Positions 5,265 to 17,500 of a stretch of 64,000 nt of DNA are shown in pieces. The first letter of the stretch is position 1. Every line of letters begins with the position of its first letter. Origin of the DNA: Chrysomallon squamiferum (taxonomy: Eukaryota > Animalia > Mollusca); contig CM022671.1 in NCBI GenBank assembly GCA_012295275.1, positions 15,438,001 through 15,502,000 on the forward strand, in the 5' to 3' direction. Position numbers and translations under genes: made by a program. A model generated the notes under the pieces. That model was not told where the DNA came from. It made no database searches and saw nothing but the letters and a program-made list of their open reading frames with translations.

Positions 5265-5600
5265 TTAGGCTAGTGCTTCTTGCATGGCTGTGTAGGTGCA
5301 GTTTGAACGCTCGCAGATTGGATCAGGACTGTAGAAGTCTTCCAGCTTCAGAGGTTTCAGACAATTTTCACAATTTTTGGGACACATTGGTCGGTACAGC
5401 TCCAGGCCATTCATCTTCCAGATGCTGACAAGGTTATCAGTGAGGATGTCCATCATCTCCTCGGTGTGATGTGGTGTTGGTGCAATTCGCAGACGTTCCT
5501 CACCCACAGCCACAGTGGGGTAGTTGATTGCCTGGATGTAAACTCCGAATTTCTGCATCAAGTCATTGGACACTTTAGTGCACATCTGAGCATTGCCAAC
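5265..5600 (-). CDS. ALAS: ALAS terminal coding exon with Cys-rich C-terminal extension
   Basis: VGNAQMC...[10 protein letters not shown]...LRIAPTPHH...[11 protein letters not shown]...*. Confidence 0.97.
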   Translation of the reverse strand, partial: VGNAQMCTKVSNDLMQKFGVYIQAINYPTVAVGEERLRIAPTPHHTEEMMDILTDNLVSIWKMNGLELYRPMCPKNCENCLKPLKLEDFYSPDPICERSNCTYTAMQEALA

Positions 5601-8600
5601 CTGATAATAAAAATAGTTTAAAAACGTTTTTATTACATATGAGTAAATTAGAAATAATTTTACTAGATAGGAAAAGTCATATATATATATATATATAGAA
5701 TACAGTGTGATCTGGAAGTATAATCTCATAAATTTAACCTCTGTAAGGACTGATGAACAAGACAAATTATTATTTTTATTTTGTTTTGTATAATTTCATA
5801 AGAAAGACAAGATGAAAAAGTTCACATTCCAAAAAAAATGTTTGGGGATTAGGATCAATGGTTATAATATTTCAAAATTTCAAACCAACATACTGATAAT
5901 GTGAAAATAGACAACAGTGAAATTCTGTTTGGCAAAACCATTAATAAAATAGAACATTTCACTCTAATTTCAGTCTACTTACATGGACAGGTATAATGTG
6001 ACTTGGTGTATGCATTGCTGGTATGCCTGCATCTATCAACTTTTCACGAAGGTACTTCACATTTGACTGGTGTTTCACCCTAAGTTGTTGACCTTCTGGA
6101 CCAGACAGTACCTGAAATCAAAATGAAAATGTAAAAAATATTATCAAAACACAAGTGACAGATATATTCTTTTAAAAGATTTCTTAAAATGTATTATTAA
6201 TACAGAATTTTGTTATCTGATATCTAAAGTCTGTGATAGTTAATGTGCAAGTGCAAACCTTTATTGCTGCCAGTGCTCCAGAGAGAATGGTTGGAGGAAG
6301 GGATGTAGTGAAGATAAACCCAGAGGCATAACTTCGAATCATGTCAATTGTACTTGCTGTTCCTACTACATACCCGCCCATGTTACCAAACGCTTTACCT
6401 GTAAATGAACACAAAATTGGTAAAACTGGTCAGGTTTCTGTCCGAGAATTATTTTTTAAAATTTATCTTCTCTAAATTAGTTATGAAACTATTTATTTTA
6501 TTTATAATCTGTATCAGATAATTTTTAGTTTTCCTATCTTTGTAATGTTATGTACTATCAAATATTTCACTTAGGGGATAAAAAAAAACTAATTACATTG
6601 TGTAAATGTGTCAGACTAAACATTAACCTTCAAATGATTCAAAATATTTATTAACAAAAATTAATAAGCCTTCTAACTTGTTTATTCATGTCATTTTGAA
6701 CACAATTACAGTGCTTCATTTTGCTTTTCAAATTATTATGTGTGTTTATGCTTTTATATATTTGTACTTTACATACTGCAAAGCAACAGGTATAAAGATT
6801 TAGAAAAAGACTTTTCAATAGAAATTAAGCAAAATGATGGTGTACCCAAAGTTCCTGAGATCAGATCTATTTTGTCCATGCATCCATCACGTTCTCCAAC
6901 TCCAGCACCATGATCACCATAGAGACCCACAGCATGAACCTCGTCAACAAACGTCAGTGCACCGTACTTCTTAGCAATGTCACACATTTCATTTAGTGGA
7001 CTGATAGAACCTATAAACAAAAAGAGAAAAACAACACAGATGTTACAACAGTTATAATCTAAAATGCTACATGTGTCCATAATACAGTTAGCCAAACGGT
7101 TTATAAAAGATACATTATAATAAATTTATTTAGAACTATTTTGTATGATGCACACGATGACTAAATTGACAACTACAATTTTTTTTTCTTCACAACATTA
7201 TCTGTAAACAGAATAAAATAATTTGTATTACATACCATCCATAGAATGCACCGTTTCAAAGGCAACAATCTTTGGAACTGAGACATCAACTTCCTTCAAT
7301 AACTGCTCGAGATGGCTAGAATCATTGTGACGGAAAACATGTTTTGGTACCCGGCTGTTGAGAATACCCTGAATCATTGATGCATGGTTTCCAGCATCAG
7401 AGAAAATATGGGCACCTATGGTAAAAATAAAATAAAATTAGTTTGAAAAATATTATTTTATTATTTTAAAATGAGGACAAAACTGTGATTAAATCCTATT
7501 ATTGAGGCAGAGATCAAACTGGGTTTGTCACTGGAATTAACATGTCATTTATGTGTTTTACAGGAATAAACACCAACACAGATTATCTGTAATTCACATG
7601 TGACAGTTAAGGGTGTCATGAAAATTAGAATAATTGTCATAAATGATCCATACATCTGCAAAATTGATCCATATTACCACGACCTAATGATTTGATAATT
7701 TGTCACAGTAAACATTGTTATTGATAATCTAACCTGGTAATTTTTTCAGTAGAGTGAACAATGTTGAGTCATTGGCTACATAACAGGATGTAAACACCAA
7801 ACCAGCCTCTTTCTTGTGCAGTCTAGCAAGTTCTGCCTCTAGCTTTTCATGAAGGGGGGAGTTTCCCGATATATTTCTGGTCCCTCCTGCCCCAGCTCCA
7901 TGTTTGTCAAGAGCCTCCCTGAAAAGAAGGATTTCTCAATTTGAAAATTTGTTCCTTGTTAATAATCAGTCAATGTTAAAAATAACTGAACTGCATTAAA
8001 AATAAAACAACTTCAGTAACATTTTTTCTTTTAAAGGACTAATGATGGGGTGTTTAAAATGGGAATGATATTGATAATATATTTTCTTATAGTCTATATA
8101 CTTTTCTATCATTGGCACTACACTTAAATTTTTTAAATAAAATTTGTGATAATTTTAAAGAAATGGAATTTAATAATCTTATCTGAAAATAGTAATGATT
8201 CCATCCCCCCAAAAAATAGCCATTTAAAATTGCTAACTAATAAATGTCATCTATTTTCTCCTGTGTAATAAGAAGAGAATTAAAACATGTCTCACTGTAC
8301 AGCCTGCTTGACCTCTGGGTGCCAGGTCATACCCATGTAGTCATTGCTGCACCACACAGTGATGTCCTTGGTACCCTCGGTGTGTTCCTTGGCAAAAGGA
8401 AATGTTGACGCATTCCTCATCACCTTCTTGAAGACACGGTAGGTATGGTCTTTCTTCTTCTTTTCCACTTGCTGCGCAAAGAACTTGTCATAGTTGAAGT
8501 ACTGCTTTGGTGGTTCTGTAATAAAATATAAAGTTAACTTAAATTTCTAGTCAGTAAATATGAGATATTATATATATTTATCTCTGAATTTAAATTTAAA

Positions 8601-9874
8601 CAAAAATCTCAGAGGTACAATAAATAGATAATAATAATAATAATATAAAATGAATTAAGCGGAATACAAATGTATTCATGAAATTAGAACTAATATAATT
8701 AGGACAGTTGTTGAATTTTTACAGCAGTAAATGTTAAAAATTAATAAATATAAATGTTATATTTTTAAAAAAATAAAGCAATAACAAAATTTATATTAAA
8801 TTCATTATCTGTTATTATTTATAAATGAAAGTAAGCTTTCCTACAGTCTAAAACAAGTAGAAAATAATGTTTAGCTGAAGAAGAGTGATTTTAAAAATGA
8901 TAAGACAACAAAAATACATATGAAAAAAAGAAGAATAAAAAGAAGTATGTTAACCTCCAGTGGGAGGCTCACTGCTTCCTTTCTTCTGGGACTTGAAGGC
9001 CAGATCAATACTGAGACCTGACATAAGATCACCACTGGGTTTGGTTGACTCAATCTTTTCATTAATCTGCATTGCAGGTTCACTTGAAACAGCTGACTCT
9101 ATTAAAAAACATTAACATTTCATTTCATATAAACTACAGGGAAAGTAAAAATTAGTTTTATTGTATTAAAGTATAAATTCTGTTTTTAAAAGACACATAA
9201 TAATAATAATAATAATATTATGATTATGATTATGATTATATTTTAAATTATGATTATTATTTTTTTTAATTATTTAAAACCCAAAAAGAAATTTAATTTC
9301 ATTAACAAAAAACTGACATACCAGATACAGGGACATTAATGGCATCTTGTTGGATTTCAGAACGTATTGCTGGGGTATTAATTTCTTTTGCCAGAAACGG
9401 ACATCTGGAAGCTGAAGTAACAGCTGCTGTAAAAAAAATAATTTAAAAAATTAAATTTATTTCATAATCTAATACTTAACTGTTTCATCTGAATTGTGTA
9501 AACATGTTTACATATGTATTAGAGTTTTCAAACATCACTGAAAAAAACCCACACATAACAATTGCTAGATTAACATAATACTAAACTCAAATTTTACTCT
9601 ATGACCAAGACACAACTTCAAAAATTATAAATAAATTCTTAAAAATGTTTCATTTACATTCTCAGCGCAAATTACATACTAAGGCATTGTAAATTTGTAC
9701 TCTGATTATACCTTCTTTTTCGTGGCTATCAGATGCTGAGCTAACCGAAGTATACTGTGCAGCATGTGCCATTACTGGACAGTGGCTGGCACCATAGCTC
9801 AGAAGCTGTGGAGCAAACTGGCGCAGGCTGTTCATTGGCAGCTTGGTCAGAAAAGGACATGCTAGAGTATTCAT
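5265..9874 (-). CDS. ALAS: 5-aminolevulinate synthase, mitochondrial (588 aa); complement(join(5265..5600,5983..6111,6259..6398,6846..7010,7236..7415,7734..7918,8296..8515,8955..9098,9322..9426,9712..9874))
   Basis: Ten exons with GT-AG boundaries and consistent phases total 1767 nt. Motifs: [67 protein letters not shown]-lysine [37 protein letters not shown]. Confidence 0.98.
5983..6111 (-). CDS. ALAS: ALAS coding exon 9
   Basis: [18 protein letters not shown]...PSHIIPVH, 129 nt, phase 0-0. Confidence 0.96.
6259..6398 (-). CDS. ALAS: ALAS coding exon 8 (PLP-binding Lys)
   Basis: [10 protein letters not shown]...[10 protein letters not shown]. Confidence 0.97.
6846..7010 (-). CDS. ALAS: ALAS coding exon 7
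   Basis: [16 protein letters not shown]...ISGTLG. Confidence 0.97.
7236..7415 (-). CDS. ALAS: ALAS coding exon 6
   Basis: [15 protein letters not shown]...FRHND...FETVHSMD. Confidence 0.97.
7734..7918 (-). CDS. ALAS: ALAS coding exon 5
   Basis: [15 protein letters not shown]...[12 protein letters not shown]. Confidence 0.97.
8296..8515 (-). CDS. ALAS: ALAS coding exon 4
   Basis: QYFNYDKFF...[13 protein letters not shown]...[10 protein letters not shown]. Confidence 0.97.
8955..9098 (-). CDS. ALAS: ALAS coding exon 3 (low-complexity linker)
   Basis: 144 nt, phase 1-1, [15 protein letters not shown]...SSEPPTG. The donor gttaac is weak; an in-phase gtgagc donor lies 18 nt earlier. Confidence 0.8.
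9322..9426 (-). CDS. ALAS: ALAS coding exon 2 (HRM3 SRCPFLA)
   Basis: 105 nt, phase 1-1, [35 protein letters not shown]; not in the ORF track. Confidence 0.9.
9712..9874 (-). CDS. ALAS: ALAS coding exon 1 (presequence, HRM1 CPFL, HRM2 HCPVM)
   Basis: Acceptor tttctcag| at 9883, ATG at 9874, donor gtataa; [13 protein letters not shown]...SHCPVMAH. Confidence 0.93.
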
Positions 9875-11047
9875 CTTGATGCACTGAGAAAAAAAAAATA
9901 GTAATAATAAAAACACAATCCTACAGAAACAATACACAAAATAACAGGTTCCTATTTCAGATGATTTAAATTTATAATAAATGATTTAGAAGTGAACAAC
10001 ACATTGTTTGGTGCTTGTATTCCTAGACTCCATAAAGAGCAGATTTTATTATCTATGTCCTTTTCCCCCTCTGCCATTTTTCTGCTTGTCAGAAGCTAAA
10101 TTATCCTGCTTTAAGTTCATGGAATCACAAATAATAGACTGGATTAAATGTTTTTCCTTAAACTGTCACATTAACCTATTTCTATACACTGGAGAAAATA
10201 GTAATTATTTTTCTTCTAACAAAAATGTCATGGCTCAGTTCAACTCAGTTTGTAATGTTTAATAAACAGATATTTTTTTATCTGTGCTAAATCTTTTTAA
10301 TGTTTGTTCCTGCTCAGTACAAAAGGCAGAAGGAGTAAGAGTAATATATCTGGACTTTTGGTTTAAAACTAAAATGTATGTCAGATAATTTCTTCATCAG
10401 TGTTATTTTCTCTTTCTAGTATTACACAGAATTCTATTAGTAAACAGCTGTTCTCACAATAACATAATACAATATCGTTTTCTCTATGTTTACTCTAACA
10501 ATAATTAAATTATATTATTCAATGGAAAGTTCTTTAAAATGATGTGATATTTCTTTTGTCATTTCCTATCAATATAACAAAGCTGACCAACACTCTTATT
10601 TGTATAAATTAATTTAAAAATGATTAAAACAGATGTCAATTCACATTTTTAAAACTTATTACTTTCCTTATTCTATAACTTCCCTTTCACAGTTATTCAT
10701 TTGATTATGATGCCTAAGGGAAAATAAATATTACTAATAAGTATTAGATTCCAAGTTAACATCTGAATGAGAACTAATTTTATATTAGCATTATTAGTAT
10801 TTTATCTATAATTTACATCAGTAATTTATATGGAAAATAGGAAACTGCATTCTTTAAGGCCAGTAAATAAATTATGTTTAAATTAATGTATACTGGTATC
10901 AATAACATTCAAATAAAGAAATAACAGCTGCTTATTAAATTGAAATTAATTAATTATCTGTTATTACCATTGAATTTGTTGTTATTATTATTTTCAAATT
11001 GTTTTCTCTCAGTGAAACCTGTATTAGCTTAATATAATAGTGATGTA

Positions 11048-11174
<127 letters not shown>

Positions 11175-12364
11175 AACAACCATAGAGAAATATAACACCA
11201 GATTTGAAGTATTTAGGGCCACATATGTTTTTGGATTTCAGAAGAGCACAAATACCACATATTACAGAAAATCTCAGATGAAGCCCACGGCTTAATCTTG
11301 AACTCATGCTGTGCCAGAAAAAGTATTAAGTTTAAGTGCCTGTCATATTTCAGAAAAATGTAACACTAAAACTTTTTTTTTTTTTTTTTTTTTTAAATTG
11401 AAAGCTTTGTATTTAATTATTCTGGAGGATGCAATTAAAGATAAGTATTATTATTTAATTCTTATTTAAAATATAGGCCTATATATTTTTTTCTTATTTT
11501 GTTGTAGATTTATCCATTATTCTTTGATATTAGTAAAATGCAGTTTAAAACAGTTTTCTTAAAAATTAAAAAAAAGAAAAAGAAAAAGAAAAATAATACA
11601 ACAAAACCCCCACATGTTGTTTTTATTTTGTATTTTTCCCCTCTTACCAACAGCAACTGCACTCAAAGTGCAACATTTTTTTAAGGATTTCAAAGCATTT
11701 GGAAGAAACAGCATCCTTTAATAAATTTCTCTTTGAACCATACTTTAAATTTATCTGTAGCCAACAACCCTGAAATAAAATGACTACCAGAAGAATTTTA
11801 TTCTGACATTATATGTATTTAAACCGCGAGAAAAAGTGGGGTGAGTCATCAGTTTTTACATTCAGTGAAGTATGTATGTGGATTGAAGCACATTACCCAC
11901 AGCAACATAGGCCTGTTATGGGTTATACTCTGACAGAATGATTATGATTAATGGAAAAAATGTCCCATCAAATGTCACCAGACACAGCTGTGAACTGATA
12001 AAATGTAACATGAATAATTCAGTGGAAAGATATAAAATTATTATTAAAAGAGTATATGTGGCAACATGAACAGCAAACACTTTATGTATGTATGTATGTA
12101 TGTATGTATGTATGGGCGTGTGCTTTGAACTGGTTGAACCAAGTCTTTTTTTTATGTACAACTTTGCTACTAATAAAGTATGTCTGCAATTTAAAAATGT
12201 TGTGGATTATTGGTTACATTTCTTTTTTAAGGAAGATGTACACATAAAATGTTGTAACAAAATTAAAGACAGGTAACTTTGTTAGAAGTATAAATAATAT
12301 ATCAGCATGTAACTAGAATGTATACATTATTAGCTGTATAAATATGTAATTGGTGTTTTCTAAA

Positions 12365-13644: not shown

Positions 13645-13707
13645 CAAAACGGCTGACTGGATGATGCTGTTTGAGTGTGCTCTGCACTGAAAGCGACACA
13701 AAGGTCT
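13645..13707 (-). other. ALAS: Non-coding 5'UTR exon of ALAS carrying the IRE
   Basis: Strong acceptor (ttttgtttttcag|AGACC) and donor (TTTTG|gtaagt) bracket a 63-nt, GC-richer, ATG-free island in AT-rich intron. Confidence 0.8.
13675..13699 (-). promoter_or_regulatory. Iron-responsive element (IRE)
   Basis: Minus strand reads GTGT-C-GCTTT-CAGTGC-AGAGC-ACAC: CAGUGN loop, 5-bp upper stem (one U-G pair), unpaired C, lower stem GTGT/ACAC; sense to ALAS. Confidence 0.9.
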
Positions 13708-14387: not shown

Positions 14388-14506
14388 CTGCGAAGAGTAA
14401 GTATTGGGTGTGCTGAAGAATCTGCCTGACCCACTTTTGTGAAGCCAGGCACGTTTCTCCGATATTTATACTACACTGACAAAGAACTACTGGAAAAATA
14501 ACCAAT
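14388..14506 (-). promoter_or_regulatory. Proximal ALAS promoter and ~53-nt first exon (TATA, Inr-like, CCAAT)
   Basis: TATAAA at 14470-14465 (minus), TTCA initiator-like A at 14440 exactly 30 nt downstream, donor CAG|gtgaga at 14388, CCAAT at 14502-14506. Confidence 0.6.
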
Positions 14507-17500
14507 CAGCATATGAGATCTGCTAGCTGAGGATGAGAGCTCAACTTGTTTAGAAAATGTTTCCTGTCAGTGTTATTTTGATGAAAAGGAATAACTACTC
14601 TGTATTAGGTTTTTATATAAACAATAATGTAACCAGCTTCTCTTGCAGAATTTGCAAATATAAATTTGACAACTGCACAAAATTGTATATAACCAGAAAT
14701 AAAAAGGTTAAGTAAAGAAACATCAGAGTGATTTATCTGGTGATAAAGACACAAAATAAAAAGCTATAAATGATTAGAGTAGAAAAACAGATACAGTTAT
14801 CCTGTATAACTCAATGTATAATTCTTGGTCAACAATTTTGCTTACTGCTGCTAAACAAAATATGCAAACATACAAGATTTTATTTTCAGTTAATATAAAT
14901 CAGCTAAAAAACTGAAATTCTTTCCCCATATGTTGAACATATTGTAAGTGTCAAGGGACAAAAAAGGAAGTCAAAATACAGCCACTCTACATTACTATCT
15001 TCCGTTTCAAAATACCAGTTCAATCTTTCTTTTGTAAAAAAGCTTGATTACACTGCTTTATACACTAAAACTTTATTTTTAATGTGACTACTTCATACAA
15101 TATATCAGAATGGAAGTGTCATTTAGCCAGTTAGTAACAATGAACAAAGAACTGAGTGAGTTATGAAAACACATTTCAAAACAACATATTGTTAATGTGA
15201 ATACATCATAGTATAGGTTATAACAAGCTTTTACACACAAAACAATGCATAAAATGTTTTTAACAGTGTCCAAATGGTACATTTCGATTTCTGAAATAAA
15301 GCCTTAAATATTACATTTATATTAGTAAAAACATTTTCTGTTAAAATAATAATAATAATAATAATGCATTAGATTTCAACAACAAATTCTAGATGTTTTT
15401 ATGAGGAAAAACATTTTGAACAATACAAGCTGCTAAGCTATGAATAGTAATACTTGTTAAAAGACAATATGAATTTATTGTGACATTCCTTTTCAATATC
15501 TTTTTTTCTACACATTTTATGAAACTATTATGCAAATTATTTTAACTGCAGTAATTCCTCACATCACAGTGGTAACAAATCCCCTAACATTCTGCGTTAA
15601 TCACATGTAAAAATTATAAAATTCAGGCAACAATTGTTTCAAAGTCCCTCTCATTTTTATTATTTAAATACTAATATAACATTAAAATGAAAGAAAAAAA
15701 TATATACATGAATTTTATAAATTTATTGTGCAGATTCATATCTCTTTCGGCATTTACCCATCTGTTAAAACTTCATGGGATTATTTGATGCTATACAATC
15801 AGGTCCTTTATTTTTGCTTCTTCTGCAAAAACGTTTTCAAAATACAGAATATGTGCTCTGTATTTCCCATGTATGTTGTTTCGCACCTCAGCAACAAATA
15901 TGGGACATTTCAGTTTAACATCCTTTCTGAGTGAGAGCAGTATGTGACTGCCACGACAGTAATTGTCACTGTTTTGTATTTTTTATTTACAATATATTTA
16001 TTTTTATTGTTTATACTGTACAGTATGTTATTTATTACACCAGTTTACCAGTACATTATATTTATGTAAGTCAAGTGGTGAACATTTTGTAAATCTGGAA
16101 CATATCTGTGTTATTTATATTAGTTCCTCTTTCTATGCATCATTTTGTAATATGTTGTGTTTTCATGTTGTGCACTGAAATGCTTACTAAGGAAGCCCTG
16201 TAGATATGTTTCATCTATGTTAAAAACTTCCTGTTATAAACTGAAAAAATAGAAACTGTTTTGCAGCTTCTTGATCTGTGTTCACAGTACCCTTATTAAA
16301 TATTTCAGTTTAACAGTACAAGTACTAAAAAGGATTCAGTTTTGATCACAGCCTTTAATACATAACAAGAATACCTCTATCAAACAGCTTGCATAACAGT
16401 TAATAAAATCAAAATACTAAATATGAAAACAGTTTGGAGTTCTGTGATTAACGTAAGTGTTGTTATGGAAATAGAAGCAAAAACGCTTTGCAGTATTTTA
16501 GTTTAAATTTTCTAAATTTCACTATTCTTAGTCAAACCAGGAGCAATTAACTGTTACTAATAAATTAAAAAAAAAAAAAAAAAAAAAATGCAATTTATAA
16601 ACAGTGTTGATAAAAAAAAAAAAAACGCATAATGAATTAGGCATATTAAAACTGAACGTATGACAGTATTTTAAAATATGCTGATATATGAGGTAATTAG
16701 TAACATTTTTTGAATTTATTTTATTTATTTTAAAAACTTAAGAATCAGTTAAAACAAAAATAATGTAACGAAACTATTAATATTATTAAAATTACCATTC
16801 TTCTAACTGGCAAAATAAAATTTGTTTTCATTATCTGGAGGTCATTATGAAAGACATAAATACAAAAATAGGTACTAAAGCATTTATCCAGCAAGCTAAG
16901 GTCAGAAGTAGATAGGATTTCTGGATATGTCAGTTTTCTGGATACAGGCTGACTCATTACTTAAGATATAAAATAAACTGAAATGTTTGTTTATTTGTTT
17001 CCGACATGTGTGCATGTTTGGTGATATGAAACTGATACATCAGTATCAGACTGAAAACCAGTAAACAAAATGAAATATAAATACCAGTCAATGTTATTTA
17101 ACAATTCCTGCTATTTTGTGGACACTGGTATTCTGAGATTTATTATTTTCATTCACAGTGAAAATATGACACCTGTAAAGATGCAGAACCTCAGCTCAGT
17201 TCCTACTGTCAGCTGTTAACTTTTAAATGATAAAACTGATCTAAACAATCTTAACAAATTACAAGCAGGAATTAATCTATCGCAATAAATAATTTTATAA
17301 AATCTATACACATTCCCTCATTAGATATATTCATAAAGATACTACATAACACTACAAGATACTATATTGTTTTTTTTATATATGCAGGTCAGCATCTTAT
17401 CCTGTACAAATTATCTTTCTTAATAAAAACATCTGGATATGACAACAACTGAGGTATAATTAACCTTTTTTTACAGGCAGATGTCAGGCTTATAATCTAT

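Follow-up and report, generated by a model that had tools for sequence, protein, structure and literature searches.

Gene organization of the ALAS locus

The window, i.e. the whole stretch of 64,000 nucleotides of Chrysomallon squamiferum DNA analyzed here, holds an ALAS gene on its minus strand, in which ten coding exons (9883–5265) give an open reading frame of 588 amino acids. The first coding exon (exon 3, 9712..9883) carries the ATG at 9874 and matches the Pfam family Preseq_ALAS (E value 1.2e-7); coding exons 4–12, reaching to the stop codon (5265..9426), were placed by the open frame, by alignment with the ALAS of Gigantopelta aegis and by the register of an RNA contig. Pfam matches were obtained in two of the three exons scanned and comprise the ALAS presequence (PF09029) and aminotransferase I/II (PF00155). 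The closest named protein is the ALAS of the vent snail G. aegis (P0046; 495 of 587 aligned residues identical, 84%), followed by Haliotis (67%), and five other mollusc ALAS proteins share 60–67% identity. Three Cys-Pro motifs are found at residues 6, 32 and 63, two of them in exon 3, and fit the haem-regulatory patterns of ALAS N-termini described in PMC3904948. Besides that, short GC-richer segments resembling proline-/glycine-rich coding exons lie at about 870–1870 on the plus strand; this candidate neighbour gene converges on the 3′ end of ALAS.

Upstream of the ATG exon, the gene model contains two non-coding exons. Exon 2 (13645..13707, minus strand) is 63 nt long, free of ATG and flanked by a T-rich acceptor ending in CAG and the donor TTG/GTAAGT; the intron that separates it from the ATG exon at 9883 measures 3,761 nt. 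Exon 1 (14388..14665, minus strand) is given as far as an RNA contig (run X8, record 17) reaches, with contig letters 1–267 aligning to 14665–14388 around an 11-nt gap, and ends in the donor CAG/GTGAGA. In the upstream part of exon 1, runs X8, X1 and X5 all show two substitutions and an 11-nt deletion relative to the window (14490–14491 and 14624), which is an allele or assembly difference. An earlier reading of this DNA from its letters alone (hereafter the sequence-only reading) had described an internal, ATG-free exon of 63 nt with a strong acceptor and donor, about 3.8 kb from the ATG exon and droppable without a change to the protein, and the gene model agrees with it on each of these points.

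Both splice sites of exon 2 rank among the strongest of the gene. The donor agrees with the consensus at seven of nine positions and is perfect from +1 to +6 (range 4–8 over the 11 donors of the gene), and 14 of 16 acceptor positions are pyrimidines (range 10–15 over the 11 acceptors), which favours constitutive inclusion. RNA data came from 2 of 11 runs (X8 and X9), both from one study and in the form of assembled contigs; runs X10 and X11, of another organism (organism B), matched almost no sequence words. Among the X9 pieces listed there was no ALAS mRNA contig, and the depth over 7585–8618 was nil, an absence that is uninformative because some records are filtered. The X8 contig, 2,972 nt in length, leaves exon 1 at letter 267 and resumes at position 8515 with letter 752. 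The 484 intervening letters equal the sum of the IRE exon (exon 2) and the next three exons (63 + 172 + 105 + 144), which would amount to 421 if the IRE exon were missing, and the register also agrees at 8515, 7917 and 5598. Because a register of 484 requires the 63 nt, the exon belongs to the main X8 form, by register arithmetic on one contig of one run, where rare forms drop out; it is thus likely included in the main mRNA. A direct junction from 14388 to 9883 was absent among the 15 joints listed of 45, in contigs that lose rare forms, and the joints of exon 2 itself were likewise not among these 15.

A hairpin with the features of an iron-responsive element

Within exon 2, the minus strand encodes an iron-responsive element (IRE, 13675..13699), assigned by its fold, by a chance test, by the features given in PMC8466369 and by comparison with the leaders of other molluscs. 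Reading from 13699 to 13675, the hairpin consists of a lower stem of four base pairs, a bulged C8 at 13695 that is unpaired in the fold, an upper helix of five pairs (G-C, C-G, U-A, U-G and U-A) and a CAGUGC loop at 13689–13684. This loop provides the C14-G18 cross-loop pair and the A15-G16-U17 triplet (13688–13686), and position 19, which is U or C in PMC8466369, is C at 13684. Hence the canonical IRE proposed in the sequence-only reading for this strand holds, with its fold and all five sequence features of PMC8466369. That the element lies in a UTR and in sense orientation within an animal mRNA is indicated indirectly, by the register of the one RNA contig.

The same fold was returned for all three fragments folded, with an energy of −8.1 kcal/mol. 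Typical IREs are moderately stable, with about −7 kcal/mol (PMC3048577), and compared with shuffled sequences the folding energy at the hairpin is ordinary (z from 0.02 to −1.19). In the spliced leader, the predicted pair probabilities of the hairpin are 0.4–0.55 for a short and 0.3–0.4 for a long leader. When both strands of the 64 kb were scanned for a C-bulge, five upper pairs, a CAGWGH loop and at least two lower pairs, this hairpin was the only one of its type. Across 200 dinucleotide shuffles, the chance rate per window was 0.01 with at least three and 0.005 with at least four lower pairs. The comparison with the Rfam IRE models (RF00037/RF02253), which the sequence-only reading had proposed as a check, gave no match at the gathering score in the whole window, and none at E values up to 10 over 1,301 and 91 bases. 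Weak Rfam matches to snoRNA and XIST models were under the gathering score and were dropped.

Next, we compared the hairpin by hand with the human ALAS2 IRE (PMC8466369, Table S1). The two match at 15 of 23 positions, and all eight differences keep the pairing: in three pairs both partners differ, in two pairs a single partner. Identity in the upper stem is 6/10 for ALAS2 and 4/10 for ACO2, and none of the remaining eight classic IRE types exceeds 2/10, so that among the ten types the snail element, by its letters, is of the ALAS2 type and closest to ALAS2. Its likely origin is an ancestral element common to it and the vertebrate ALAS2 IRE. Its setting is also similar, as vertebrate ALAS2, Ciona ALAS and sea urchin ALAS likewise carry in their 5′ leader an IRE with the C8 bulge, a five-pair upper stem and CAGUGC. 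The end of the stem lies 39 nt from the ATG in the spliced snail mRNA versus −26 to −36 in most vertebrate ALAS2 genes (PMC3904948).

Apparent conservation of the element in other molluscs

To assess conservation we used N-terminally extended ALAS protein models that translate the leader, and back-translated these; the comparison therefore concerns possible codings rather than DNA. Translated in one frame, exon 2 of the window gives VSLSVQST, which compares with VSLSVKST in Haliotis cracherodii and VSFPVRST in a second Haliotis. Among 45,270 distinct 10-residue windows from all fetched proteins, the four closest to the window hairpin (Haliotis P0002/P0053, Haliotis P0048, P0177 from the oyster cluster and Solemya velum P0077) showed 1, 3, 3 and 4 differences in 25 nt, and all four peptides belong to mollusc ALAS leaders, ahead of the conserved Met. 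A strict test for a perfect IRE was passed by 5 of 42 distinct leaders, most of which are too short to reach the position of the IRE, namely by three Haliotis models, Solemya velum and Owenia. In the controls, a perfect-IRE coding was possible for 9 of 39,799 windows, one being the Solemya leader itself. The Owenia leader (P0190) was set aside, as it is unlike the snail hairpin and may be a chance match (0.15 expected in 684 windows), and an Octopus leader is incompatible with a perfect IRE.

All perfect-IRE codings of one abalone have U-A at pair 13-20, and all those of the second abalone have C-G, a compensatory stem change of the kind that the earlier reading had suggested looking for in relatives, here seen by back-translation. 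The oyster hairpin (P0177) has one lower-stem mismatch, and position 19 is A in the closest coding of one abalone, as in 16% of classic IREs (PMC8466369). Judged from these predicted leaders, the IRE appears to be conserved with its pairing kept in two abalones, an oyster and Solemya. Pairing kept across gastropods and bivalves would imply selection on the structure. In addition, the H. cracherodii models X1 and X2 have the IRE block in common and differ in the sequence directly above it; with two different upstream partners, it would seem to form an internal exon in this species too. Over-extended gene models thus keep RNA elements of the 5′UTR as peptides, and their back-translation tests the conservation of a structure from proteins alone.

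We also looked at 19 metagenome loci, most of which resemble arthropod ALAS and one of which is a weak match, and a perfect IRE was absent from all of them. A dipteran-like ALAS transcript (L013) has an IRE-like hairpin with a CAGUGA loop near its 5′ end (17–50). Being imperfect, with four of five upper pairs and −2.4 kcal/mol, it was not counted as an IRE.

Relation to known IREs

Previous work has listed high-quality IREs in the 5′UTR of vertebrate ALAS2, teleost ALAS1, Ciona ALAS and sea urchin ALAS, and medium-quality ones in sea anemone and honey bee; the same survey, which has no mollusc column, proposed an IRE for the deuterostome ancestor (PMC3904948). For amphioxus ALAS, a high-quality IRE is listed there as ‘Intron1’ at −5013 from the ATG (Table S3); this element may represent an unannotated internal exon like that of the snail. 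Translation of vertebrate ALAS2 is under IRP-IRE control (PMC3048577), as assumed in the sequence-only reading. The latter had further supposed that ALAS IREs are poorly documented in protostomes. Invertebrate examples are already in print, which weakens this premise. For molluscs, no report of an ALAS IRE was found in the literature searched, although one may be listed by Piccinelli and Samuelsson (2007) or in the supplementary material of PMC7850002. As far as this literature goes, the ALAS IRE is new for molluscs.

One gene yielding both iron-gated and iron-independent mRNAs, as the same reading proposed for ALAS, is an arrangement known from chiton ferritin (PMC7850002) and from mammalian ferroportin and DMT1 (PMC3048577), and the fly and chiton ferritin cases lessen its novelty. 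The ferritin gene Fer1HCH of Bactrocera and Drosophila is the nearest parallel, as its IRE lies in an alternatively spliced, internal non-coding 5′ exon whose loss leaves the protein unchanged (PMC3999511). There, both forms were demonstrated by RT-PCR, whereas for the snail inclusion alone is indicated, and the gene and the type of IRE are different.

Distance of the hairpin from the cap

A distance of about 60 nt from the cap is the limit of strong repression by an IRE, and weak repression is expected from a more distant position. At the snail gene, a core promoter is predicted at 14464..14506 (minus strand), with an inverted CCAAT starting at 14506 and a TATA-like box at 14470. Based on a 30-nt TATA spacing, its +1 would be near 14440, giving a predicted ATG-free leader of 125 nt with the IRE at nt 62. 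If the contig end at 14665 were the start instead, the hairpin would be found at nt 287, with an upstream ATG. The RNA contig does reach above the predicted +1, and contig ends cannot fix the start of transcription. In the predicted abalone leaders, 45–60 nt or more lie above the hairpin. The human ALAS2 IRE sits in a non-coding first exon; unlike it, the snail IRE is in an internal exon and probably further from the cap, and its function is putative. An influence of IRE position on regulation has been described (PMC8466369), and the start-to-IRE distances annotated for other ALAS genes range from 4 to more than 200 nt (PMC3904948).

Probable iron gating of ALAS and its alternatives

Considering the sequence evidence as a whole, exon 2 carries a real ALAS IRE that is probably functional and ancestral, and a putative IRP target. 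We regard it as probable, with good confidence, that this canonical ancestral-type element is bound by IRP1 in low iron and thereby slows translation. Under iron scarcity, binding of IRP1 to the hairpin would slow initiation on the mRNA of the first enzyme of the haem pathway, so that porphyrin synthesis would not run ahead of the iron supply; with iron available again, the repression by IRP1 would lift. The repression is probably moderate, because the cap is at least about 60 nt away from the hairpin.

How large the effect on the enzyme would be is the point at which a different explanation enters: the hairpin may be conserved and bind IRP but have little influence on ALAS output, with haem feedback on the presequence dominating. 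The three Cys-Pro motifs of the presequence region would fit this, as would the contig end 287 nt above the hairpin, which would be too far from the cap, the 45–60 nt or more above it in the abalone leaders, and pair probabilities below 0.6, which would point to misfolding. Against it stand the pairing apparently kept across gastropods and bivalves and the wide range of distances from start to IRE, 4 to more than 200 nt, in other ALAS genes (PMC3904948), and we consider it unlikely. Much further down the scale is a chance hairpin or an unreal exon. Although Rfam returned no match and the folding energy is ordinary, the rate of such hairpins is at most 0.01 per window, the lone match falls in the 5′ leader of ALAS, the contig register is exact and matches are found in four other molluscs. 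This explanation is very improbable and already largely refuted.

A separate question is whether the gene also makes mRNAs that escape the iron gate. The sequence-only reading favoured a splicing switch, in which exon 2 is a cassette and its regulated skipping (14388 to 9883) gives an iron-independent ALAS mRNA. The internal, non-coding and droppable nature of the exon would allow this, the IRE exon of Fer1HCH in Bactrocera and Drosophila sets a precedent (PMC3999511), and the ‘Intron1’ entry of amphioxus ALAS at −5013 is how an optional exon would be listed (PMC3904948). However, the register of the sole mRNA contig calls for the exon, both splice sites of exon 2 are strong, and an IRE-less abalone leader could not be matched to either known upstream exon in any frame. 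As a plain skip product, this abalone model (P0047) was rejected, with seven mismatches in 24 nt against shuffled means of 6.6 and 7.9. We therefore hold the skipping switch to be improbable. If IRE-free mRNAs are made, alternative first exons joining downstream of the IRE would be their likelier source.

Such a regulated two-leader system, in which the IRE-plus mRNA starts at an upstream promoter and the IRE-free one, at an appreciable level, at a second promoter within intron 2, would add to the IRE reading rather than replace it. Several observations in relatives are in line with it. In a further Haliotis model (P0047), another leader is attached downstream of the IRE block; the ATG exon of oysters is preceded by a conserved, short coding leader unlike the one that bears the IRE in P0177, a protein 96% identical to Saccostrea ALAS; Mercenaria has four different leaders at this exon; and many mollusc ALAS proteins are represented by 3–4 or more RefSeq accessions, G. 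aegis by three (XP_041349795–797). Together these speak for diverse 5′ ends among molluscs. A precedent is isoform 2 of chiton ferritin, which arises from an alternative start further downstream (PMC7850002); the same route is favoured here for mollusc ALAS. In the snail itself, runs X8 (record 19) and X9 (record 24) both hold an unspliced minus-strand RNA segment of intron 2 with its upper end at 11987 (11715..11987). An AG precedes the upper end of this 272-nt segment, a TCAGTT motif begins 11 nt above it, and a DNA contig runs through 11987; the segment may be a candidate downstream promoter, an alternative exon or background. Background is suggested by the two runs coming from one study and also covering DNA upstream of the gene. 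In the X8 and X9 contigs, no intron-2 segment was found joined to exon 3, and the one donor in intron 2 that reaches at least 7/9 consensus positions has no in-frame ATG leader. The leaders seen in relatives may also derive from additional exons, or from introns retained, between the IRE and ATG exons, which would keep the IRE; protein data cannot separate these from first exons below it. Altogether, alternative first exons fit the predicted leaders of relatives better than skipping does, and we view the two-leader system as a tentative possibility.

Unspliced contigs are also seen in both RNA runs at 10009–10600 of intron 2. Besides that, short basic/hydrophobic N-terminal extensions recur on ALAS models of bivalves and relatives (e.g. 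M-F-T-L-R in oysters; P0086, P0150, P0171, P0173, P0090, P0013, P0063, P0106 and P0249). They may reflect a conserved, coding alternative to the first exon by which the mitochondrial presequence is extended.

Evolutionary implications

Molluscs may have kept a pre-duplication ALAS, which combines haem-regulatory motifs with an ALAS2-type IRE exon and gives iron-gated or iron-independent mRNAs by choice of leader. Vertebrates would then have split these modes between ALAS2 and ALAS1, and the intronic IRE of amphioxus would be the same exon, making the arrangement ancestral to bilaterians. This scenario is speculative, and we put it forward as conceivable rather than probable. If the IRE-free leaders are real, the idea that ALAS1 and ALAS2 arose when ancestral isoforms were partitioned could be tested directly on existing transcript data.

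For molluscs, ALAS would be a second likely IRP target besides ferritin, whose IRE is bound by a mollusc IRP1 in EMSA (PMC8947174), and ALAS output has been tied to porphyrin shell colour in this phylum (PMC5723588). The snail element would make the ALAS IRE, so far a deuterostome trait with two candidates of medium quality in other animals, one that molluscs share. An ALAS IRE common to molluscs and deuterostomes would in turn mean that the iron gating of haem synthesis predates both red blood cells and the split of ALAS1 and ALAS2.
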